From NCBI RefSeq assembly GCF_050320075.1, contig NZ_CP190018.1: 64,000 nt of DNA; one strand, 5' to 3'. Source of the DNA: Escherichia coli. Lineage in GTDB: Bacteria; Pseudomonadota; Gammaproteobacteria; Enterobacterales; Enterobacteriaceae. The notes beneath the pieces were generated by a model that saw only the letters and a list, made by a program, of their open reading frames with translations, did no database searches and was not told the DNA's origin. Position 1 is the stretch's first letter, and every line of letters begins with the position of its first letter. Positions 432 through 62,406 of this stretch are shown piece by piece. The position numbers and the translations under genes are program-made.

Positions 432-514
432 CAACGCCATCAAAACATTGACTTTTATCGCCGTAGCCTTTTCAATAAAGGTCTTTTGAAAAGTACCAAA
501 AGGTAACGCAAGCA

Positions 515-559
515 ATGAATGCTGCTATTTTCCGCTTCTTTTTTTACTTTAGCACCTGA
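515..559 (+). CDS. pheM: pheST attenuator leader peptide (14 aa, [14 protein letters not shown], Phe-rich)
   Basis: ATG at 515, 5 Phe in 14 codons, stop at 557-559, upstream of pheS. Confidence 0.85.
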
Positions 560-605
560 CTCCAGGAGGCTAGCGCGTGAGAAGAGAAACGGAAAACAGC
601 GCCTG

Positions 606-631
606 AAAGCCTCCCAGTGGAGGCTTTTTTT
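606..631 (+). terminator. pheST attenuator terminator hairpin (AAGCCTCC...GGAGGCTT + T7)
   Basis: GC stem followed by TTTTTTT between pheM and pheS. Confidence 0.7.
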
Positions 632-655
632 GTATGCGCGTTTTGAAAAAATTAA

Positions 656-4087: not shown

Positions 4088-4387
4088 ATGGCGCTTACAA
4101 AAGCTGAAATGTCAGAATATCTGTTTGATAAGCTTGGGCTTAGCAAGCGGGATGCCAAAGAACTGGTTGAACTGTTTTTCGAAGAGATCCGTCGCGCTCT
4201 GGAAAACGGCGAACAGGTGAAACTCTCTGGTTTTGGTAACTTCGATCTGCGTGATAAGAATCAACGCCCGGGACGTAACCCGAAAACGGGCGAGGATATT
4301 CCCATTACAGCACGGCGCGTGGTGACCTTCAGACCCGGGCAGAAGTTAAAAAGCCGGGTCGAAAACGCTTCGCCCAAAGACGAGTAA
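4088..4387 (+). CDS. ihfA: integration host factor alpha subunit
   Basis: 99-aa [55 protein letters not shown]... Confidence 0.95.
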
Positions 4388-4400
4388 TCTGATCTAACTA

Positions 4401-4430
4401 AAAAGGCCGCTTTGCGGCCTTTTTTCTTTT
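4401..4430 (+). terminator. ihfA intrinsic terminator (GGCCGC-TTTG-CGGCC + T-run)
   Basis: hairpin and TTTTTTCTTTT 14 bp after ihfA stop. Confidence 0.7.
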
Positions 4431-4487
4431 CACTGTCGAAGAGTCACCGTAAAATCAACGCCATGACACTTCAGCAGAACGGATACC

Positions 4488-5530: not shown

Positions 5531-6082
5531 ATGCAAGATTCCATTCTGACAACCGTAGTGAAAGATATCGACGGTGAAGTGACCACGCTGGAGAAGTACG
5601 CCGGTAATGTGCTGTTGATTGTCAATGTCGCCTCAAAGTGTGGCTTAACGCCGCAATATGAGCAGTTGGAGAATATTCAGAAAGCCTGGGCCGATCGTGG
5701 TTTTGTGGTGCTGGGATTCCCGTGCAACCAGTTTCTGGAGCAAGAACCGGGCAGCGATGAAGAGATTAAAACTTACTGCACCACTACATGGGGGGTGACG
5801 TTCCCGATGTTCAGTAAGATTGAAGTTAATGGCGAAGGACGCCATCCGCTGTATCAAAAATTGATTGCCGCAGCGCCGACCGCAGTCGCGCCGGAAGAGA
5901 GCGGATTCTATGCCCGTATGGTCAGCAAAGGTCGTGCACCGCTGTACCTTGATGATATTTTATGGAATTTTGAGAAATTTTTAGTTGGCAGGGACGGATT
6001 GGTCATCCAGCGTTTTTCCCCGGATATGACGCCGGAAGATCCCATTGTGATGGAAAGCATTAAACTGGCGTTGGCGAAATAA
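5531..6082 (+). CDS. btuE: glutathione peroxidase-like thioredoxin/GSH peroxidase
   Basis: 183-aa ORF with GPx motif [14 protein letters not shown]; stop overlaps btuD start (TAATG). Confidence 0.93.
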
Positions 6083-6831
6083 TGTCTATTGTGATGCAGT
6101 TACAGGATGTTGCGGAATCTACCCGCCTGGGGCCGCTTTCTGGCGAGGTTCGGGCTGGGGAGATCCTGCATCTGGTGGGGCCGAACGGCGCGGGTAAGAG
6201 TACCTTACTGGCGCGAATGGCCGGAATGACCAGCGGTAAGGGAAGCATTCAGTTCGCGGGGCAACCACTGGAAGCATGGTCCGCAACAAAACTCGCGCTG
6301 CATCGCGCCTATCTTTCACAACAACAGACGCCACCGTTTGCAATGCCGGTCTGGCACTACCTGACACTGCATCAGCACGATAAAACGCGTACCGAACTAC
6401 TGAATGATGTCGCAGGGGCGCTGGCTCTTGATGACAAACTCGGACGTAGCACCAATCAACTTTCCGGCGGCGAATGGCAACGCGTACGTCTTGCTGCGGT
6501 GGTGCTGCAAATCACACCACAAGCCAATCCCGCAGGTCAATTGCTGCTTCTTGATGAGCCGATGAACAGTCTTGATGTTGCGCAACAAAGTGCGTTAGAC
6601 AAAATTCTGAGCGCGCTGTGTCAGCAAGGACTGGCGATTGTGATGAGCAGTCACGATCTCAACCATACATTGCGTCATGCGCATCGGGCATGGTTGCTAA
6701 AAGGTGGAAAAATGCTGGCCAGTGGACGCAGGGAAGAGGTGCTCACGCCGCCAAATCTGGCGCAGGCCTATGGGATGAATTTTCGCCGTCTGGATATCGA
6801 AGGTCACAGAATGCTGATTTCGACCATCTGA
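6082..6831 (+). CDS. btuD: vitamin B12 ABC transporter ATPase
   Basis: 249-aa ORF with Walker [10 protein letters not shown] and ABC signature LSGGE. Confidence 0.93.
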
Positions 6832-14961: not shown

Positions 14962-16608
14962 TTATTCAATCTCTTCACAGACATCCTGAGTTAATCTCCG
15001 CATAATATCTTTCCTTAACAAAAACTTTTGTATTTTACCTGAGGCAGTGCGCGGTAGTTTTTCGATTACCACGATATGTTCAGGATATTTATATTTCGCG
15101 ACCCGTTTACGGCTAAAAAAAGCCACCACCTCTTCCAGCGATAATGAATGATGCGGTGCTTTCAGCACGACATAAGCGCATGAGCGTTCACCTAAACGTT
15201 CATCGGGCATCGCAACCACACAGGCATCGTGAATTTTAGGATGCTGCAATAAAATATCTTCTACTTCACGGCTGCTAATATTTTCGCCGCCGCGGACAAT
15301 AATATCTTTCTTGCGCCCGGTTATTTTTATATAGCCGGCCTCATCCATGCAGCAGAGATCGCCGCTGTAATACCAGCCTTCTTCATCCAGGGCACGGGCG
15401 GTTAATTCAGGTTCATCAAAATACCCCATAAACACATTGGGGCCACGCGAGGCTTCTTCACCTTCGCAACCTGGCGGTAAGGTCTTGCGTGCGTCATCGA
15501 CCACTTTAATCTCAACACCTGCGGCAGCGTAACCATCGGTGTGCATAAAGCGCGACAAAGGATCGTCGAGATTCACCACTGCGTGCGGCGAACTTTCTGT
15601 GGAACCATAAACACTTAATAATTTAATGCCGCGCTGCTGGCATTCACGCGCCACTTTTTTGGGGATTGTGGTCCCGCCGCAAAGAAAGAAGCGCAGCGCT
15701 GAAAGGTCAGCGGGTTGTTTCTCCAGTAAATTCAAAAGATCATAGACAAACGGCGTTGCGCCGAGCATACAGGTGCAACGCTGCTGCTCAAGCAGCGCGA
15801 GACACGCATCAGGAGTGAAAATATCTAACAACACGCTGCGAGCGCCAATTAAGAATGGTGCCGTTACGCCATGCAGAAAGCCCGTTGCATGACCAAGTGG
15901 CGCAGGCATCATAAAGACATCCTGCCAGGTCAGATTCAACCGCGCGCAATAAGCCCGCTCACTGGCGAGAATATTGTTATGCGTTAGCATCACGCCCTTT
16001 GGCAGACCCTCGGTTCCGGAGGTAAACAGCACCGCGGCTAATTCATCGCCGTGGACCGTTATCGCCGTGGTTAGAGGAGTATTGTCGGCGATAATCTGAC
16101 TTAATGAGAGAGCAGAGGTGGCGGGAGCCAGTTTGTCCACGCCGACAAGTTGTTGTAGTTGTGGAAGCTGATTTTGCAGCGGCAGGATTAAATCTACCGG
16201 ACGCGTTTGTTTAAACAACGTCGGAGCAAAGAACATTTTTGCCTGACACTTATTGAGCACCCATACTAGTTCTGCTTCCCGCCAGGAAGGCAACAGCGGT
16301 ACGGAAACCGCACCGATTTTCAGGCAGGCAAGATAGATAACGGTAAATTCACACCAGCCAGGCAGTTGAAATGCGATGCGATCGCCTGATTCAATACCCT
16401 TCGCTAACATCCAGTTTGCCAGACAGCTCGCGGCGTGATCGAGCGCGCTATAGGTGTACGATGCTCCATGATTATCGACCACGGCAATTTTGTCTGGCAT
16501 CGCACGAGCGGTCTGCTGCCAGTAATCGGCCAGCGAAGCATCGCCCCATAGCCCTTGCTGACGATACGCCGCACGACGTTGTTCGTTAAACGTTAATGTC
16601 ACTTTCAT
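14962..16608 (-). CDS. fadK: short-chain acyl-CoA synthetase (anaerobic)
   Basis: AMP-binding enzyme; start placed at MKVTLTF with GAGAG SD (548 aa); an in-frame upstream ATG at 16662 would give 566 aa. Confidence 0.8.
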   Translation of the reverse strand: MKVTLTFNEQRRAAYRQQGLWGDASLADYWQQTARAMPDKIAVVDNHGASYTYSALDHAASCLANWMLAKGIESGDRIAFQLPGWCEFTVIYLACLKIGAVSVPLLPSWREAELVWVLNKCQAKMFFAPTLFKQTRPVDLILPLQNQLPQLQQLVGVDKLAPATSALSLSQIIADNTPLTTAITVHGDELAAVLFTSGTEGLPKGVMLTHNNILASERAYCARLNLTWQDVFMMPAPLGHATGFLHGVTAPFLIGARSVLLDIFTPDACLALLEQQRCTCMLGATPFVYDLLNLLEKQPADLSALRFFLCGGTTIPKKVARECQQRGIKLLSVYGSTESSPHAVVNLDDPLSRFMHTDGYAAAGVEIKVVDDARKTLPPGCEGEEASRGPNVFMGYFDEPELTARALDEEGWYYSGDLCCMDEAGYIKITGRKKDIIVRGGENISSREVEDILLQHPKIHDACVVAMPDERLGERSCAYVVLKAPHHSLSLEEVVAFFSRKRVAKYKYPEHIVVIEKLPRTASGKIQKFLLRKDIMRRLTQDVCEEIE

Positions 16609-16664
16609 TTTGGACTCTCGAGACAGAACATCAGGCCCGAGATGCGGGCCTGTGGGATGCATGA

Positions 16665-16958
16665 TTAGCCGTAGCGAAAATCAATACCGAAGGTGCCTGC
16701 GGGATATTGCCACTGTTCGAGAATAGTGTTGCCGCACAGCACCCGACAGGTGCCGCACTCCAGACAACCGGCAGAATCAAAATGAATGTTGCCGGCGTCA
16801 TCCTGCTTATAAAGTCCGGCAGGGCAGGCTTTCATTAATTTACGGAATTCATTGATATCGGGATTTGCCGCCAAAATGATATGCGGGTGGCCCTCATCAA
16901 CATGGAATTTATTGACGCCTAATTTGATGTCGACGTTAACCGTAGCGTTCTGGCTCAT
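16665..16958 (-). CDS. ydiT: ferredoxin-like protein (FixX family)
   Basis: 97-aa ORF with Cys cluster; 4-bp overlap with ydiS. Confidence 0.88.
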   Translation of the reverse strand: MSQNATVNVDIKLGVNKFHVDEGHPHIILAANPDINEFRKLMKACPAGLYKQDDAGNIHFDSAGCLECGTCRVLCGNTILEQWQYPAGTFGIDFRYG

Positions 16959-29025: not shown

Positions 29026-29163
29026 CGTGTAATGGCTGCATGAAATAAACAATAAAATATAAATAACATTATCAGCCTGCTGACGGCTTGAAGAGAGTCA
29101 CAGTATCTTGTGCAACATTATTGGAAAGCGTGAGGGGCGAGGTAGCGAAGCGGAAAAATGTTA

Positions 29164-29268
29164 AAAAAAAGCCCATCGTGGGAGATGGGCAAAGACTACA
29201 CACAGCAATTCGTTGTTTCACTCAGGGGATTTCCATGCTTATAAATCAATATGTTGATTTATAACCGT
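29164..29268 (-). ncRNA. rprA: RprA small RNA (RpoS translational activator)
   Basis: minus-strand sequence ACGGTTATAAATCAACATATTGATTTATAAGCATGGAAATCCCCTGAGTG...CCCATCTCCCACGATGGGCTTTTTTT matches my recollection of rprA, including the terminator. Confidence 0.85.
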
Positions 29269-33900: not shown

Positions 33901-34011
33901 CCGCGTAATCGCTGTCTGGCGACCGGATATTCCTGCCGTAGCCAGGTAAAACGGGTCGAAGGCACGGGGGTACGCCATCCTGTGCAGGCTTTACTGGAGA
34001 TTATTAAATGA
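30955..34011 (+). CDS. ydiJ: FAD-linked oxidase fused to 4Fe-4S/CCG domains (reported D-2-hydroxyglutarate dehydrogenase)
   Basis: 1018-aa ORF with N-terminal FAD-binding domain and C-terminal Cys clusters. Confidence 0.9.
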   Translation: MIPQISQAPGVVQLVLNFLQELEQQGFTGDTATSYADRLTMSTDNSIYQLLPDAVVFPRSTADVALIARLAAQERYSSLIFTPRGGGTGTNGQALNQGIIVDMSRHMNRIIEINPEEGWVRVEAGVIKDQLNQYLKPFGYFFAPELSTSNRATLGGMINTDASGQGSLVYGKTSDHVLGVRAVLLGGDILDTQPLPVELAETLGKTNTAIGRIYNTVYQRCRQQRQLIIDNFPKLNRFLTGYDLRHVFNDEMTEFDLTRILTGSEGTLAFITEARLDITRLPKVRRLVNVKYDSFDSALRNAPFMVEARALSVETVDSKVLNLAREDIVWHSVSELITDVPDKEMLGLNIVEFAGDDEALIDERVNALCVRLDELIASQQAGVIGWQVCRDLAGVERIYAMRKKAVGLLGNAKGAAKPIPFAEDTCVPPEHLADYIAEFRALLDSHGLSYGMFGHVDAGVLHVRPALDMCDPQQEILMKQISDDVVALTAKYGGLLWGEHGKGFRAEYSPAFFGEELFAELRKVKAAFDPHNRLNPGKICPPEGLDAPMMKVDAVKRGTFDRQIPIAVRQQWRGAMECNGNGLCFNFDVRSPMCPSMKITQNRIHSPKGRATLVREWLRLLADRGVDPLKLEQELPESGVSLRTLIARTRNSWHANKGEYDFSHEVKEAMSGCLACKACSTQCPIKIDVPEFRSRFLQLYHTRYLRPLRDHLVATVESYAPLMARAPKTFNFFINQPLVRKLSEKHIGMVDLPLLSVPSLQQQMVGHRSANMTLEQLEALNAEQKARTVLVVQDPFTSYYDAQVLADFVRLVEKLGFQPVLLPFSPNGKAQHIKGFLNRFAKTAKKTADFLNRMAKLGMPMVGVDPALVLCYRDEYKLALGEERGEFNVLLANEWLASALESQPVATVSGESWYFFGHCTEVTALPGAPAQWAAIFARFGAKLENVSVGCCGMAGTYGHEAKNHKNSLGIYELSWHQAMQRLPRNRCLATGYSCRSQVKRVEGTGVRHPVQALLEIIK

Positions 34012-34706: not shown

Positions 34707-34904
34707 TCCTGACTTGATGCCGCAATTTCGCCAAATCGACCTTGATTAACCTCCGTCCAGGTTCGATGGCCTTCTTAATACTGCTTATCTACCCGCCTGA
34801 TATTGTTCAAAAATAATACTAATCGCAGTTTGTGTTAAAACGGCGGGTTAGCTTTATGAGATTATTCTTATCGCCCCTTCAAGAGCTAAGCCACTGAGAG
34901 TGCC

Positions 34905-34975
34905 GGAGATAAGCGCCGGATGGGGTAGAAACCCTTAAGCCTGTGTCGCACAGACTTAAGGGTTTTCTTATTTCT
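34905..34975 (+). ncRNA. rydB: candidate RydB small RNA
   Basis: ydiH-sufA intergenic position where rydB is annotated in K-12; hairpin ACCCTTAAGCCTGTG/CACAGACTTAAGGGT followed by TTTTCTTATTT; 5' end and identity not verifiable from memory. Confidence 0.35.
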
Positions 34976-37128: not shown

Positions 37129-37875
37129 ATGTTAAGTATTAAAGATTTACACGTCAGCGTGGAAGATAAAGCTATCCTGCGTGGATTAAGCCTCGACGTT
37201 CGTCCCGGCGAAGTTCACGCCATTATGGGGCCAAACGGTTCTGGCAAAAGTACCTTATCGGCAACGCTTGCCGGGCGAGAAGATTATGAGGTGACGGGCG
37301 GCACGGTTGAGTTCAAAGGCAAAGATTTGCTTGCGCTGTCGCCGGAAGATCGTGCAGGTGAAGGCATCTTTATGGCCTTCCAGTATCCGGTGGAAATTCC
37401 CGGCGTCAGTAACCAGTTTTTCCTGCAAACGGCACTTAATGCGGTGCGCAGCTATCGCGGCCAGGAAACGCTCGACCGCTTTGATTTTCAGGATTTGATG
37501 GAAGAGAAAATCGCTCTCCTGAAGATGCCGGAAGATTTATTAACCCGTTCGGTAAACGTTGGTTTTTCCGGCGGCGAGAAAAAGCGCAACGATATTTTTC
37601 AAATGGCGGTGCTGGAACCGGAGTTATGCATTCTTGATGAGTCGGACTCCGGGCTGGATATTGACGCATTAAAAGTGGTTGCCGATGGCGTGAACTCGCT
37701 GCGTGACGGCAAGCGCTCATTCATCATTGTTACGCACTACCAACGCATTCTCGACTACATCAAGCCTGATTACGTCCATGTGCTGTATCAGGGACGAATT
37801 GTGAAATCCGGAGATTTCACGTTGGTCAAACAACTGGAGGAGCAGGGTTATGGCTGGCTTACCGAACAGCAGTAA
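37129..37875 (+). CDS. sufC: Fe-S cluster assembly ATPase
   Basis: 248-aa ABC-type ATPase with Walker A GPNGSGKST. Confidence 0.95.
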   Translation: MLSIKDLHVSVEDKAILRGLSLDVRPGEVHAIMGPNGSGKSTLSATLAGREDYEVTGGTVEFKGKDLLALSPEDRAGEGIFMAFQYPVEIPGVSNQFFLQTALNAVRSYRGQETLDRFDFQDLMEEKIALLKMPEDLLTRSVNVGFSGGEKKRNDIFQMAVLEPELCILDESDSGLDIDALKVVADGVNSLRDGKRSFIIVTHYQRILDYIKPDYVHVLYQGRIVKSGDFTLVKQLEEQGYGWLTEQQ

Positions 37876-39121
37876 CGCGCTGCAACAGTGGCATCACTTG
37901 TTTGAAGCTGAAGGGACAAAACGCTCACCGCAAGCACAGCAGCATTTACAACAATTGCTGCGTACCGGACTGCCGACACGGAAACATGAAAACTGGAAAT
38001 ATACGCCGCTGGAAGGGCTGACCAATAGCCAGTTTGTCAGCATTGCGGGAGAGATATCCCCACAGCAGCGTGATGCCTTAGCGTTAACGTTAGACGCCGT
38101 GCGGCTGGTGTTTGTTGATGGACGTTACGTGCCCGCGCTGAGCGATGCAACTGAAGGCAGCGGATATGAAGTGAGCATTAACGACGACCGTCAGGGGTTA
38201 CCCGACGCTATTCAGGCGGAAGTGTTTCTGCATTTGACGGAAAGCCTGGCACAAAGCGTGACGCATATCGCCGTGAAGCGCGGTCAACGACCGGCAAAGC
38301 CATTGCTGTTAATGCATATAACCCAGGGCGTGGCAGGTGAAGAGGTGAACACTGCCCATTACCGACATCATCTGGATCTGGCGGAAGGTGCCGAAGCAAC
38401 GGTGATCGAACATTTTGTCAGCCTTAATGATGCTCGTCATTTTACTGGGGCACGGTTCACTATCAATGTCGCAGCGAACGCCCACTTGCAGCATATCAAG
38501 CTGGCGTTTGAAAACCCGCTCAGTCACCACTTTGCCCATAACGATTTGTTGCTGGCAGACGATGCCACCGCATTTAGCCACAGTTACCTGCTGGGTGGCG
38601 CAGTGTTACGACACAACACCAGTTCGCAACTCAATGGCGAAAACAGCACGCTGCGGATCAATAGCCTGGCGATGCCGGTGAAAAACGAGGTGTGTGATAC
38701 CCGTACCTGGCTGGAACACAATAAAGGTTTTTGTAACAGCCGACAGTTGCACAAAACTATCGTCAGCGACAAAGGCCGCGCGGTATTTAACGGTTTGATC
38801 AACGTCGCGCAGCACGCCATCAAAACGGATGGTCAGATGACCAACAATAATCTGCTGATGGGCAAACTGGCGGAAGTGGATACGAAACCACAGCTGGAAA
38901 TCTATGCAGATGATGTGAAATGCAGCCACGGCGCGACGGTGGGGCGTATTGATGACGAACAGATGTTTTATCTGCGCTCGCGCGGGATCAATCAGCAAGA
39001 TGCCCAGCAGATGATCATCTACGCCTTTGCTGCTGAACTGACGGAAGCACTGCGTGATGAGGGGCTTAAACAGCAGGTGCTGGCCCGAATCGGTCAACGA
39101 CTGCCAGGAGGTGCAAGATGA
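37850..39121 (+). CDS. sufD: Fe-S cluster assembly protein SufD
   Basis: 423-aa ORF; 26-nt overlap with sufC. Confidence 0.93.
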
Positions 39122-40338
39122 CTTTTTCCGTCGACAAAGTGCGGGCCGACTTTCCGGTGCTTTCGCGTGAGGTAAACGGTTTGCCGCTGGCTTATCTCGA
39201 CAGCGCCGCCAGTGCACAGAAACCGAGCCAGGTGATTGACGCCGAGGCCGAGTTTTATCGTCATGGCTACGCGGCGGTGCATCGCGGTATTCATACCTTA
39301 AGCGCCCAGGCGACCGAGAAAATGGAGAACGTGCGCAAGCGGGCATCGCTGTTTATTAATGCCCGTTCGGCGGAAGAGCTGGTGTTCGTCCGCGGCACGA
39401 CGGAAGGGATCAATCTGGTCGCCAATAGCTGGGGTAACAGCAATGTGCGGGCGGGCGATAACATCATCATCAGTCAGATGGAGCACCACGCTAACATTGT
39501 TCCCTGGCAGATGCTTTGCGCACGCGTTGGCGCAGAGCTGCGTGTGATCCCGCTCAATCCCGACGGTACGTTGCAACTGGAGACGCTACCTACGCTGTTT
39601 GATGAGAAAACTCGCCTGCTGGCAATTACTCATGTCTCCAACGTGCTGGGAACGGAAAATCCGCTGGCGGAAATGATCACGCTTGCGCATCAGCATGGCA
39701 CAAAAGTACTGGTGGATGGCGCTCAGGCGGTGATGCATCATCCGGTGGACGTTCAGGCGCTGGATTGCGATTTTTACGTGTTCTCCGGGCATAAACTGTA
39801 TGGCCCCACTGGGATTGGCATTCTTTATGTCAAAGAAGCCTTGTTGCAGGAGATGCCGCCGTGGGAAGGGGGCGGTTCTATGATCGCCACCGTCAGCCTG
39901 AGTGAAGGCACTACCTGGACCAAAGCACCTTGGCGGTTTGAAGCCGGTACACCCAATACCGGGGGCATCATTGGTCTTGGCGCGGCGCTGGAGTATGTGT
40001 CGGCGCTGGGGCTTAATAATATAGCCGAGTATGAACAGAATCTGATGCACTACGCGCTATCACAGCTGGAATCTGTACCGGATCTCACTCTCTATGGTCC
40101 CCAGAACAGACTTGGCGTTATTGCTTTTAATCTTGGTAAACACCACGCCTATGATGTTGGCAGTTTTCTCGATAATTACGGCATTGCTGTGCGTACCGGA
40201 CATCACTGCGCTATGCCATTAATGGCCTATTACAACGTTCCTGCCATGTGTCGGGCGTCGCTGGCTATGTATAACACCCATGAAGAAGTGGATCGTCTGG
40301 TGACCGGCCTGCAACGTATTCACCGTCTGCTGGGATAA
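39118..40338 (+). CDS. sufS: cysteine desulfurase (group II)
   Basis: 406-aa PLP-dependent aminotransferase class V ORF; ATGA overlap with sufD. Confidence 0.95.
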
Positions 40339-40915: not shown

Positions 40916-41920
40916 ATGAAACGCGCGTCTTTGCTTACACTCACGCTTATCGGCGCTTTTAGCGCCATCCAGGCTGCCTGGGCGGTTGATTATCCGCTAC
41001 CTCCAACCGGAAGCCGACTGGTTGGGCAAAATCAAACGTATACGGTGCAAGAAGGGGATAAAAACCTTCAGGCCATCGCCCGACGTTTTGATACTGCGGC
41101 AATGTTGATCCTTGAAGCCAATAACACTATCGCCCCGGTGCCAAAACCTGGTACGACGATAACTATTCCTTCGCAACTGTTATTACCTGATGCGCCGCGT
41201 CAGGGGATTATCGTTAACCTGGCAGAGCTGCGCCTTTATTATTATCCGCCGGGAGAAAATATCGTGCAGGTCTATCCGATAGGTATTGGTTTGCAGGGGC
41301 TGGAAACGCCAGTGATGGAAACGCGTGTGGGGCAGAAAATCCCTAACCCAACCTGGACGCCTACGGCGGGCATTCGTCAGCGTTCGCTGGAGCGTGGCAT
41401 TAAATTACCGCCAGTCGTTCCTGCCGGGCCAAATAACCCGCTAGGACGTTACGCACTGCGCCTCGCGCATGGTAATGGCGAATACCTCATTCATGGCACC
41501 AGTGCGCCGGACAGCGTCGGTTTGCGCGTCAGTTCGGGCTGTATTCGCATGAATGCGCCGGATATTAAAGCCTTATTCTCCAGCGTGCGGACGGGAACGC
41601 CGGTGAAAGTGATCAACGAACCGGTGAAATATTCCGTGGAACCGAACGGGATGCGTTATGTTGAAGTACATCGACCACTATCAGCAGAAGAACAGCAGAA
41701 CGTTCAGACAATGCCATACACACTGCCAGCAGGCTTTACGCAATTTAAAGACAATAAGGGTGTAGATCAGAAATTAGTCGATAAAGCGTTGTATCGTCGG
41801 GCAGGGTATCCGGTTGCGGTGAGCAGTGGAGCAACTCCCGCAGCCAGCAATGCGCCTTCAGTAGAGTCAGCGCAGAATGGTGAACCAGAGCAAGGGAATA
41901 TGTTACGCGCGACGCAGTAG
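40916..41920 (+). CDS. ldtE: L,D-transpeptidase with LysM domain
   Basis: 334-aa ORF with signal peptide, LysM and YkuD catalytic motif ([20 protein letters not shown]). Confidence 0.9.
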
Positions 41921-41934
41921 CGGTAAATGGCAGG

Positions 41935-41967
41935 CAAAAAAATGGCGCACAATGTGCGCCATTTTTC
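41935..41967. terminator. bidirectional intrinsic terminator shared by ldtE and lpp
   Basis: A-run, TGGCGCACA-A-TGTGCGCCA perfect hairpin, T-run. Confidence 0.8.
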
Positions 41968-41982
41968 ACTTCACAGGTACTA

Positions 41983-42231
<249 letters not shown>

Positions 42232-48627: not shown

Positions 48628-49296
48628 ATGTCCTTCACTCGACGCAAATTTGTTCTGGGGATGGGAACAGTAATCTTTTTTACTGGTTCTGCGTCTTCTC
48701 TGTTAGCGAACACGAGGCAAGAAAAGAAAGTTCGGTATGCCATGATTCATGACGAGTCACGGTGCAATGGCTGTAATATTTGCGCCCGCGCATGCCGTAA
48801 AACTAACCACGTCCCCGCTCAGGGAAGCCGTTTATCGATAGCACACATTCCAGTCACCGATAACGACAACGAAACGCAGTATCACTATTTTCGCCAGTCA
48901 TGCCAGCACTGTGAAGATGCTCCTTGCATCGACGTATGCCCGACAGGGGCGTCGTGGCGTGATGAGCAGGGGATCGTGCGGGTAGAAAAATCGCAGTGCA
49001 TCGGCTGCAGTTATTGCATTGGCGCTTGTCCTTACCAGGTTCGCTACCTTAACCCTGTCACTAAAGTGGCAGATAAATGTGATTTCTGCGCTGAGTCCCG
49101 ACTGGCAAAAGGCTTTCCGCCCATTTGCGTCAGCGCCTGTCCGGAACACGCATTGATCTTTGGTCGCGAAGATAGCCCAGAAATTCAGGCGTGGTTGCAG
49201 GAAAATAAATACTATCAATATCAGCTACCTGGTGCCGGGAAACCGCACCTGTATCGCCGGTTCGGTCAACATTTGATTAAAAAGGAAAATGTATGA
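48628..49296 (+). CDS. ydhX: Tat-signal 4Fe-4S ferredoxin-like protein
   Basis: start at ATG 48628 (MSFTRRKFVLG twin-arginine motif, 222 aa); four Cys clusters. Confidence 0.85.
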   Translation: MSFTRRKFVLGMGTVIFFTGSASSLLANTRQEKKVRYAMIHDESRCNGCNICARACRKTNHVPAQGSRLSIAHIPVTDNDNETQYHYFRQSCQHCEDAPCIDVCPTGASWRDEQGIVRVEKSQCIGCSYCIGACPYQVRYLNPVTKVADKCDFCAESRLAKGFPPICVSACPEHALIFGREDSPEIQAWLQENKYYQYQLPGAGKPHLYRRFGQHLIKKENV

Positions 49297-52635: not shown

Positions 52636-52941
52636 TCAGGCGAGTTTTGCCTGATTGATTTGACTCAGTGGCTCATTGACATCGAAAACTTTGGCGACAA
52701 CTTCCTCAACGCCGAGATTTTTCAGTCGGGCAGTATGTTTTTCCAGATAGGCAAGGGCGCTTTTTTCATCAGTGAAAAGGTAGATCCCACCGGCTTCGTG
52801 GTTCTTTTCACTTTCTGTCCATACCTTCCACAGAAAACCAGGTTCCTGATTAATCGACTCAGCAAGCGGTTCAAGCTGCTCAGCCATTGCGTCGCCAAAT
52901 GGGCCATTAAAAGCAAAATGAAGTTGTAACAAAGTTGCCAT
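52636..52941 (-). CDS. ydhR: putative monooxygenase (dimeric alpha/beta barrel)
   Basis: 101-aa ORF. Confidence 0.85.
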
Positions 52942-53048
52942 AGCGATTCTCCTTCTGATAACGCATACGAAGACAGTGTAAATCTTTTAATGTATTGGAT
53001 ACAGAGAAGAAACAGAGGGAAAAAGGAGAAGACCAGATTAAGAAAATC

Positions 53049-53125
53049 TGGTGCGTCCGAGTGGACTCGAACCACCGACCCCCACCATGTCAAGGTGGTG
53101 CTCTAACCAACTGAGCTACGGACGC
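53049..53125 (-). tRNA. valW: tRNA-Val (anticodon GAC)
   Basis: minus-strand GCGTCCGTAGCTCAGTTGGTTAGAGCACCACCTTGACATGGTGGGGGTCGGTGGTTCGAGTCCACTCGGACGCACCA. Confidence 0.95.
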
Positions 53126-59842: not shown

Positions 59843-60775
59843 ATGTGGTCAGAATATTCACTCGAAGTTGTTGATGCGGTAGCGCGTAATGGTAGTTTTA
59901 GCGCTGCGGCACAGGAGTTGCATCGCGTTCCTTCTGCGGTCAGCTATACCGTGCGTCAGCTGGAAGAGTGGCTGGCGGTGCCGCTGTTTGAACGACGTCA
60001 CCGTGATGTGGAACTGACCGCTGCCGGGGCGTGGTTTCTCAAAGAAGGGCGCTCTGTTGTCAAAAAAATGCAGATCACCCGGCAGCAATGTCAGCAGATA
60101 GCGAACGGCTGGCGCGGTCAGTTAGCTATCGCAGTGGATAATATTGTCAGGCCGGAACGTACACGGCAGATGATCGTTGATTTTTATCGCCATTTTGATG
60201 ATGTCGAACTCCTTGTCTTTCAGGAAGTGTTCAACGGTGTCTGGGATGCGCTTTCCGACGGGCGCGTGGAACTGGCGATTGGCGCAACACGCGCGATTCC
60301 GGTAGGCGGTCGTTATGCCTTCCGCGATATGGGGATGCTAAGCTGGAGTTGCGTTGTTGCCAGTCACCACCCGCTGGCGTTGATGGATGGCCCGTTCAGC
60401 GATGATACGTTGCGCAACTGGCCGTCGTTGGTGCGCGAAGACACCTCGCGAACGCTACCTAAACGTATTACCTGGTTGCTGGATAACCAAAAAAGACTTG
60501 TCGTGCCTGACTGGGAATCATCGGCAACCTGTATCTCTGCAGGATTATGCATAGGGATGGTGCCAACACATTTCGCCAAACCGTGGCTTAATGAGGGGAA
60601 GTGGGTGGCACTAGAACTGGAAAACCCCTTCCCGGATTCGGCATGTTGTCTGACATGGCAGCAAAATGATATGTCGCCTGCGTTAACCTGGTTGCTTGAG
60701 TATCTCGGCGATAGTGAGACGCTGAATAAGGAGTGGCTGCGGGAGCCGGAAGAGACTCCCGCAACGGGTGATTAA
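59843..60775 (+). CDS. punR: LysR-family transcriptional regulator (PunR / YdhB)
   Basis: 310-aa ORF with N-terminal HTH, divergent from punC. Confidence 0.85.
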
Positions 60776-61797
60776 CGACGATAGTCGCGGAACGGGCCGT
60801 CAGCCACGGAGCGGCGTTCAATCAACCGCGGATGCACTTCAATGGATTGCGGTTCTTCGCGTTTATTGACGATACGATCCAACAGCATATTGAACGCAGT
60901 TTCGCCCAGCGAATCTTTTGGCTGATGGATCGTGGTCAGCGCCGGCGTAAAATAGCGGGCGTTGCGCACGTTATCATACCCGATCAGCGAAACATCCTGC
61001 GGGACGCGCAGACCCATTTCATCAGCAGCACAAAGTGCGCCCATTGCCATGATATCGCCACCACAGAAGACGGCAGTAGGGCGATGCGGCTGCGACAGGA
61101 TTTGCTGCATGGCGCGATAACCGGATTCAGGTTCAAAGTCACCCTGCACAATCCAGCTTTCCGGCACTTTGATCATCGCTTCTTCCATCGCCTTCATAAA
61201 ACCGGCAAGGCGGCCTGCGCCGGTGTTACGTTCCAGTGGGCCAGGGATAACGCCGATTTCGCGGTGACCGCGTTCAATCAGATAACGCCCGGCCATGTAG
61301 CCGCCTTCGAACGCGTTATCAATGACCGCATCGGTGAAGTCAGCTTTTGCTTCACCCCAGTCCATCACCACCATCGGGATATGGCGATACTCTTCCAGCA
61401 TCGCCAGCAACGGCTCTGGGTACTCAGAACACATCACCAGCAGACCATCGACGCGTTTTTGCGCCATCATCGACAGATAAGCCCGCTGTTTCTCAAGATT
61501 GTTCCACGCATTGCCCAGAATCAGGGTGTAACCTTTCTGGAAGCAATTTTTTTCAACCGCTTCAATGATCTCGGCAAAATAGGCCGCTTCGCTGCTGGTC
61601 GCCAGCAAACCGATAGACTTGGTGTGGTTAACCTTCAGACTACGCGCCACCGCGCTAGGGGAGTAGTGTAATTCTTTGATCGCTGCCCACACGGCGTTGC
61701 GCGTTTCTTCAGCGACGAAACGTGTTTTGTTGATCACGTGTGACACAGTTGTAGTGGAAACGTTTGCTCGTTTCGCTACATCTTTTATTGTTGCCAT
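60772..61797 (-). CDS. purR: purine repressor
   Basis: 341-aa LacI-family [39 protein letters not shown]... Confidence 0.95.
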
Positions 61798-61840
61798 TCC
61801 ATTTCACTCCAGACCCTAACTTCAGCTCCTGCAAAATCGC

Positions 61841-61858
61841 AAGGTAAACGTTTGCCTT
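61841..61858. promoter_or_regulatory. PurR operator (autoregulation) in purR leader
   Basis: AAGGTAAACGTTTGCCTT, good match to the PurR box ACGCAAACGTTTGCGT; a second box-like site GAAACGTTTGCTCG lies in the first codons (61756-61771). Confidence 0.6.
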
Positions 61859-62066
61859 TACACACCTTACGCACAACAAAAGTGTTGCGGTACGCCGGAA
61901 AAACGACACGGAGCGTCAGGAAGGGGTCAATGGCCAGTACGCAAATAGTGTAAGCGTGGAATTTTGGCCGATCTTGACGAAAAGGGGAAGTGGTAAAAAC
62001 ACTTATCATTATAAATGACGGGAGATTTTTTCATCACAGTGTGTAAAAATGCGTAATATCACTTTT

Positions 62067-62075
62067 TGTGTGGTA
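62067..62075. repeat. IS1 target-site duplication, left copy (TGTGTGGTA)
   Basis: identical 9-mer at 62844-62852. Confidence 0.9.
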
Positions 62076-62130
62076 GGTGATGCTGCCAACTTACTGATTT
62101 AGTGTATGATGGTGTTTTTGAGGTGCTCCA

Positions 62131-62406
62131 GTGGCTTCTGTTTCTATCAGCTGTCCCTCCTGTTCAGCTACTGACGGGGTGGTGCGTAACGGCAAAAGCA
62201 CCGCCGGACATCAGCGCTATCTCTGCTCTCACTGCCGTAAAACATGGCAACTGCAGTTCACTTACACCGCTTCTCAACCCGGTACGCACCAGAAAATCAT
62301 TGATATGGCCATGAATGGCGTTGGATGCCGGGCAACTGCCCGCATTATGGGCGTTGGCCTCAACACGATTTTCCGCCATTTAAAAAACTCAGGCCGCAGT
62401 CGGTAA
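62131..62406 (+). CDS. insA: IS1 InsA (transposition repressor / N-terminal part of transposase)
   Basis: 91-aa [46 protein letters not shown]... Confidence 0.95.

Follow-up and report, generated by a model that had tools for sequence, protein, structure and literature searches.

The sufABCDSE operon for the assembly of iron-sulfur (Fe-S) clusters lies within a stretch of Escherichia coli DNA of 64,000 nucleotides (NCBI RefSeq assembly GCF_050320075.1, contig NZ_CP190018.1), hereafter called the window, and the present analysis concerns the overlapping reading frames of its sufC, sufD and sufS genes. The RefSeq annotation of the near-identical E. coli strain 746, made by the Prokaryotic Genome Annotation Pipeline (PGAP), was used as reference, and in the suf region its coordinates apply to the window unchanged. 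A query of 3.3 kb spanning the junction matches strain 746 at 99.97% (one mismatch) and has matches in 5421 of 5426 complete E. coli genomes. Eight single-nucleotide polymorphisms separate the window from strain 746 up to position 41942; a single-base indel at 41943, in the ldtE-lpp spacer, is the sole length difference over the 64 kb, and downstream of it the annotation coordinates shift by 1. By RefSeq the gene order is ydiJ-menI-ydiH-sufA-sufB-sufC-sufD-sufS-sufE-ldtE. This order, the matching protein families and the RefSeq annotation identify the sufABCDSE Fe-S cluster assembly operon; related loci have the same suf gene order and Pfam families, and SufD and SufB have matches in the PDB. 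The features at the two junctions are as follows.

37129-37875, plus strand: sufC coding sequence, 248 amino acids, Fe-S cluster assembly ATPase (from the open reading frame (ORF) list, translation and RefSeq).
37850-39121, plus strand: sufD coding sequence, 423 amino acids (same three sources), its ATG lying within the sufC codons TAT-GGC (Tyr241-Gly242).
39118-40338, plus strand: sufS coding sequence, 406 amino acids, cysteine desulfurase (same three sources).
37850-37875, plus strand: dual-coding overlap of sufC and sufD, 26 nt, phase 1, made up of sufC codons 241-248 plus stop and sufD codons 1-9.
37836-37842, plus strand: sufD Shine-Dalgarno sequence GGAGGAG, 7 nt 5' of the ATG, seen in the sequence within sufC codons Leu236 (last base)-Glu237-Glu238.
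39118-39121, plus strand: ATGA stop/start overlap of sufD and sufS, with the sufS ATG at 39118-39120 and the sufD TGA at 39119-39121.
39106-39111, plus strand: sufS Shine-Dalgarno sequence AGGAGG, 6 nt 5' of the ATG, seen in the sequence inside the last sufD codons.

In the junction sequence CTGGAGGAGCAGGGTTATGGCTGGCTTACCGAACAGCAGTAA, the sufC stop codon TAA occupies 37873-37875 and the sufD ATG 37850-37852; the two genes thus share 26 nt, with sufD read in the +1 frame relative to sufC. At the next junction the ATGA is contained in CCAGGAGGTGCAAGATGACT. Both sufC/sufD and sufD/sufS are thus pairs on the same strand in which the downstream gene starts before the upstream stop and is read in a different frame, and in the sufC/sufD overlap both frames are truly protein-coding throughout. 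A first-pass annotation, made from the letters of the window, had named the three genes and described both overlaps; the gene identities agree with RefSeq, the coordinates and sequences match, and the boundaries are the same in strain 746.

In the sufD frame there is no canonical start codon between the upstream in-frame stop (ending at 37804) and ATG 37850, and the next in-frame start after it is a TTG at codon 17 (37898), a codon that is TTG in some species only and CTG in most. Across the 74 Enterobacteriaceae species compared for sufD codons, codons 9-16 (NALQQWHH/R) are conserved as protein, whereas their third positions vary by about 0.6-1.3 bit at degenerate codons, so that translation in this frame must start upstream of codon 9. 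More broadly, SufD residues 9-19 stay conserved while third positions are free from codon 9 onward. The PDB entries 1vh4, 2zu0, 5awf and 11mp carry a SufD of 423 amino acids, from whose K-12 sequence the SufD of the window differs at 5 residues; this length shows the cloned sequence and not the native N-terminus. On the comparative sequence evidence, sufD initiates at ATG 37850, 26 nt before the sufC stop. The case that the first-pass annotation had named as fatal to its proposal, a downstream and non-overlapping SufD start, is excluded on comparative grounds by the coding signature of codons 9-16 and by distant operons that keep the ATG.

The sufD start and its Shine-Dalgarno sequence are written in the codons of a conserved C-terminal SufC motif, LEEQGYGW: the stretch CTG-GAG-GAG-CAG-GGT-T[ATG]-GC encodes SufC L-E-E-Q-G-Y-G and holds both. 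Constraint on these residues of SufC anchors the sufD ribosome-binding site to them. Conservation was followed in 80 Enterobacteriaceae species for junction positions (SufD 74-97% identical) and in 77 for sufC codons. The ATG of sufD and the sufC stop lie at identical positions in 80/80 species, and the 26-nt arrangement is present in 5416 of the 5426 complete E. coli genomes. SufC Tyr241, whose codon supplies the AT of the sufD ATG, is always encoded by TAT and never by TAC (77/77 species), and Glu237-Glu238, which supply the Shine-Dalgarno GGAGGAG, are always GAG-GAG (77/77). Third-position entropy in sufC is 0.175 bit in the overlap (seven degenerate codons) compared with 1.08 bit elsewhere, the lowest of 235 windows along the gene, and the third positions of sufD codons 1-8 are invariant because they are first positions of sufC codons. 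The further claim of the first-pass annotation, that the overlaps constrain sequence evolution at the junctions, is borne out by these figures. Where the overlap does vary, SufC changes are conservative (Thr245 to Ser, or silent) and those in SufD more radical (Pro5 to Ala, Val or Gln). By this comparison, SufC appears to be the more constrained partner, with the first SufD residues largely dictated by it. In Citrobacter amalonaticus AUH_CA_2023_1 (L008) and Leclercia adecarboxylata NCTC13032 (L035) the sufC frame carries internal stops or frameshifts, through either assembly error or pseudogene formation, and sufD and the junction are intact.

The arrangement persists in more distant sufABCDSE operons. 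A protein homologue search gave close relatives only, and distant homologues were taken from 50%-identity representatives of SufD and then from their contigs. Ten distant sufABCDSE operons were obtained in this way, with SufD 33-52% identical, GC contents of 19-43% and small-genome symbionts among them. All ten keep ggNT[ATG]G inside the SufC G-Y-(G/A/E) codons, and GAGGAG or GAGGAA precedes the embedded ATG in each. Their overlaps are 20, 23, 26 or 29 nt as called, always in phase 1; across this lineage the length changes in whole codons and only with the SufC tail after GYGW. In these species SufD residues 2-4 simply track the SufC G-W-L codons, and five of the ten operons (L089, L090, L091, L093 and L094) have no other in-frame ATG, GTG or TTG within the first 40 sufD codons. 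Two more distant Rrf2-sufBCDS outgroup operons lack the embedded arrangement: one has a 42-nt sufC-sufD spacer and TAC for the tyrosine, and the other a -4 ATGA overlap though its SufC still ends LEEKGYGWLEDL. The embedded start is therefore a trait of the sufABCDSE lineage. The overlap may have arisen by N-terminal extension of SufD or by extension of the SufC tail. The literature yielded no earlier account of this embedding within the LEEQGYGW codons of SufC, whether of the sufD start or of its Shine-Dalgarno sequence, nor of its conservation; the embedding is a descriptive refinement and not a new kind of element.

The sufD/sufS junction behaves differently. Its ATGA is retained by 79 of the 81 Enterobacteriaceae sequences despite wide divergence in the last SufD codons, and the two exceptions have 1-2-nt spacers. 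In the distant operons the same junction varies between an overlap of 29 nt and a spacer of 6 nt (-29 to +6). By this sequence comparison, it is much more labile across distant operons than sufC/sufD. In K-12 the start of SufS is documented by a 2026 N-terminomics table, in which the N-terminal peptide MIFSVDKVR and a Ribo-RET signal both fall at the annotated ATG (PMC13245402, Table S1). An unannotated ORF of 246 amino acids with an ATG start runs antisense across this junction (38606-39346, minus strand) and is probably a spurious long antisense frame.

Short stop/start overlaps occur elsewhere in the window as well. The three that the first-pass annotation had added to those of suf (TAATG at btuE/btuD, ATGA at ydiJ/menI and at ydiT/ydiS) are present in the sequence, with ydiS as the upstream partner of its pair, and a further one that it had not listed brings the short stop/start overlaps of the window, sufD/sufS among them, to five.

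6080-6084, plus strand: btuE/btuD TAATG, overlap of 1 nt (shared base 6082), from annotation and sequence.
34008-34011, plus strand: ydiJ/menI ATGA overlap, from annotation and sequence.
16955-16958, minus strand: ydiS/ydiT ATGA overlap, ydiS upstream, from annotation and sequence.
49293-49296, plus strand: ydhX/phsC (ydhU) ATGA overlap, the additional pair, from annotation and sequence.

Counted from the annotation, the window has 43 co-directional pairs of coding sequences, of which 6 overlap, more than chance would give; one of these overlaps measures 1 nt, four measure 4 nt and one 26 nt. For comparison, a spacing between -8 and +6 nt is reported for 24% of E. coli unidirectional pairs (PMC10666635). 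The supplementary table of the same paper, which covers all unidirectional pairs of K-12, gives sufC-sufD at -26, flagged as complex, sufD-sufS, ydiJ-menI and ydiS-ydiT at -4, and btuE-btuD at -1. All overlaps of the first-pass annotation are thus already in RefSeq and in a published E. coli table, and are an ordinary, known operon feature.

The first-pass annotation had held that the overlaps imply translational coupling. This is justified in part: coupling is likely for the -4 and -1 spacings, by way of literature on other gene pairs, and at the 26-nt overlap it is plausible and not implied. A review describes two non-exclusive models of coupling, namely RNA unfolding and ribosome scanning with reinitiation, and lists -4, -1 and -8 as enriched spacings (PMC12548453). 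Tight termination-reinitiation coupling has been observed in tested -4 and -1 pairs, none of them from this window (PMC6728339; PMC10666635), and tested native -4 pairs were strictly coupled (PMC10666635, citing Huber 2019). With the reinitiation range of -8 to +10 nt taken from PMC10666635, the pairs sufD/sufS, ydiJ/menI, ydiS/ydiT and ydhX/phsC (-4) as well as btuE/btuD (-1) all fall within it. By analogy, termination-reinitiation coupling is likely at the -4 and -1 junctions; at sufD/sufS, ribosomes ending on the TGA would probably reinitiate on the overlapping AUG.

At sufC/sufD, coupling is possible but not implied, because long overlaps are typically uncoupled and because SufD is apparently not made 1:1 with SufC. 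The latter follows from Salmonella ribosome profiling, which reportedly shows SufB, SufC and SufD synthesized in proportion to a 1:2:1 stoichiometry, mainly through translation efficiency (bioRxiv 10.1101/2023.05.25.542305); Salmonella (locus L055) shares the 26-nt overlap. A SufBC2D complex of 1:2:1 composition forms upon expression from the intact operon (PMC6006206). To judge from ribosome geometry, the sufD ribosome-binding site is necessarily covered by any ribosome within the final ~15 codons of sufC, and a ribosome on the sufC stop would leave the sufD Shine-Dalgarno sequence and AUG just clear of its trailing edge. Since the site would first be covered and then freed by sufC ribosomes, initiation of SufD would be linked to the translation of sufC, which would probably also set its upper limit. 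Initiation could then proceed by reinitiation after a backward move of ~24 nt, with capture by the Shine-Dalgarno sequence, or by fresh entry of a 30S subunit in the gaps between ribosomes. Both routes would give less SufD than SufC, consistent with SufB1C2D1.

Several points weigh against this account. The sufC/sufD spacing of -26 nt falls outside the -8 to +10 range of efficient reinitiation, and long overlaps are described as rarer, mostly of phase 1 and typically uncoupled (PMC10666635). The literature search returned no experiment on whether translation of sufD or of sufS depends on that of the gene before it, and the single match linking suf to translational coupling was an unrelated review. 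Direct mapping of the SufD N-terminus or of an initiation peak was not found in the literature accessed: the TRAINSPOTTER table, ordered by locus, includes SufS (b1680) but has no entry for SufD, and the suf genes are not mentioned in the TetRP supplements. The lack of convincing RNA structure at the junction, taken up below, counts in the same direction. As a whole, the explanation in which the overlaps are genuine and conserved, the sufD start at 37850 is anchored in the SufC motif, and coupling is what we infer from spacing and geometry nevertheless appears highly probable.

The strongest competing explanation holds that the overlaps are functionally neutral, with sufD and sufS initiated independently and the 26-nt overlap a frozen accident in constrained SufC codons. 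Each gene is preceded by a strong, well-spaced Shine-Dalgarno sequence (GGAGGAG 7 nt and AGGAGG 6 nt upstream), neither junction shows significant occluding structure, long overlaps are usually uncoupled according to the literature (PMC10666635), and SufD is reportedly made at another rate than SufC (bioRxiv 10.1101/2023.05.25.542305), all of which would suit independent initiation. On the other hand, sufC ribosomes physically cover the sufD ribosome-binding site, so that the two translations cannot be fully independent; the sufD/sufS ATGA is kept in 79/81 sequences while neighbouring codons diverge, suggesting selection on the spacing itself; and tested native -4 overlaps are strictly coupled (PMC10666635, citing Huber 2019). 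Neutrality thus seems unlikely, though it is the alternative that best withstands the evidence.

Less likely again is the opposite proposal, that the embedded sufD ribosome-binding site is a selected stoichiometry device and not a passive overlap. Ribosomes finishing sufC would first block the sufD start and then pass on to it, which would keep SufD at a constant proportion of SufC, about one half, to suit the SufB1C2D1 scaffold. If true, this would explain why the sufC/sufD arrangement has not changed throughout the sufABCDSE lineage, AT-rich endosymbionts included, while sufD/sufS drifts. Changes that are silent in SufC (TAT to TAC, and GAG-GAG to GAA-GAA) offer handles for the effect of the overlap on the 1:2:1 subunit ratios.

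A further model, which we consider slightly more doubtful still, is coupling by RNA unfolding, in which a hairpin of the sufD AUG with the sufC stop region would block initiation until melted by the ribosome translating sufC. The candidate element is the following.

37847-37876, plus strand: predicted candidate hairpin from the minimum-free-energy fold, pairing GUUAU-G-GCUG (with the sufD AUG) and CAGC-A-GUAAC (with the sufC UAA).

In this fold, GUUAUGGCUG with the sufD AUG is base-paired to CAGCAGUAAC with the sufC stop. A 121-nt window around it has a z-score of -3.4, 93% of the cells are paired over 59 distinct sequences, and one G-C to A-U compensatory pair is seen. However, the z-score of -3.4 includes an unrelated upstream hairpin inside sufC; a 76-nt window gives a z-score of -1.7, which is not significant, 10 of 200 shuffled sequences doing equally well. 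The compensatory change is confined to a single clade, and the pair at the base of the inner stem is broken in 47 of the 59 sequences. The inner stem itself is invariant, and its bases are already frozen by dual coding, which makes covariation uninformative. Moreover, the folds of the ten distant loci share no consistent structure, and none is significant (z from -1.1 to +0.6). The sufD/sufS junction has no predicted structure (z = +1.35), and an Rfam scan gave no match at either junction. The upstream hairpin, a perfect 8-bp helix GUGAAAUC-CGGA-GAUUUCAC at 37801-37820 (plus strand; sufC codons 225-231), accounts for most of the -3.4 signal. With an A·C mismatch in six species, this hairpin is not maintained by covariation.

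That SufD should start at the downstream, non-overlapping TTG 37898, the overlap being an annotation artefact, is very improbable. An in-frame TTG does exist at codon 17, and N-terminal data for SufD were not found directly. But the synonymous variation and protein-level conservation of codons 9-16 lie upstream of that codon, which is TTG in some species only and CTG in most; the five distant homologous operons named above have no alternative in-frame start in their first 40 codons; and the frozen TAT and GAG-GAG codons of sufC would stay unexplained. Programmed +1 frameshifting to yield a SufC-SufD fusion protein is the least credible proposal and was rejected, since the few such fusions in the protein database (590-663 amino acids; P0002, P0004, P0006 and P0008) are all singletons with one member on one contig, as sequencing or assembly indels would give, no known slippery motif is seen in the overlap, and SufC and SufD are distinct chains in structures and in biochemical work. 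Single-member SufD-SufS fusions exist too (P0016, P0023 and P0091), the SufC-SufD and SufD-SufS fusions together spanning 590-690 amino acids; proteins that span a junction in this way are most likely products of 1-nt indel errors, which fuse the two frames in an overlap.

The anchored overlap, to return to the favoured explanation, has some practical consequences. By confirming where SufD starts, it bears on annotation and on expression constructs. Deletion or tagging of sufC must spare its last ~40 nt, else SufD is lost, and an indel anywhere in the sufC/sufD overlap leaves both proteins fused or truncated. The practical value is modest. Among prokaryotic gene spacings, overlaps of 4 and 1 nt are the commonest, and the -26 overlap is already annotated and tabulated.

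Other features of the window were noted in passing. The longest sufB ORF, from ATG 35593 (plus strand), would overlap sufA by 31 nt; RefSeq and the SufB of the PDB (495 amino acids) use ATG 35632, 8 nt past the sufA stop. The fadK start (minus strand) differs by source: PGAP places it at 16608 in strain 746, leaving a 56-nt gap after ydiT, the longest ORF begins at 16662, and the published K-12 table gives ydiT-fadK as +2. At the 3' end of another pair, punR (plus strand, 59843-60775) and purR (minus strand, 60772-61797) are convergent and overlap by 4 nt (60772-60775). An ORF of 98 amino acids with an ATG start at 41745-42041 (minus strand), antisense to the 3' end of ldtE and downstream of lpp, matches 'ano' of E. 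coli O157:H7, a candidate overlapping gene for which the 98-amino-acid ATG variant is listed and a downstream CTG start is favoured (PMC5960689). Rfam matches comprise the small RNA rydB at 34873-34933 (plus strand, between ydiH and sufA), RprA at 29161-29268 (minus strand), the Phe leader at 509-633 (plus strand), STnc540 at 4329-4487 (plus strand), STnc550 at 61798-62177 (plus strand), and the antisense RNA HPnc0260 at 52925-53087 (plus strand), beside two tRNA-Val genes.

Comparison with known systems places both junctions among familiar arrangements. The sufC-sufD and sufD-sufS pairs of K-12 have the same genes, spacing and frames as those of the window, which represents another E. coli strain and shows no structural difference. 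The -4 and -1 pairs of the window carry exactly the motifs of the ATGA, TAATG and TGATG pairs known to be coupled (PMC6728339; PMC10666635; PMC12548453), although coupling was shown there in other native pairs and not in those of the window. SufD and SufS are not listed as one complex in the table of PMC10666635. The -26 overlap of sufC/sufD belongs to the series of long phase-1 overlaps (-8, -11, -14 ... nt) described in the same paper, in which phase 1 is several-fold commoner than phase 2 among long overlaps and there is no shrinking to -4 or -1 by single mutations. Long overlaps are proposed there to arise mostly from stop-codon loss and to be uncoupled, whereas sufC/sufD is anchored by a start codon in a conserved motif and is stable throughout its lineage. 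The coat-lysis overlaps of the phages MS2 and fr, which couple at -50 and -38 nt, respectively (PMC12548453), resemble sufC/sufD in that the start lies tens of nucleotides before the upstream stop, and by this likeness a terminating ribosome could reach or expose the sufD start. Coupling in these phages, whether by unfolding or by back-scanning, rests on experiments and a defined inhibitory structure, whereas sufC/sufD is known from sequence and has no significant structure.

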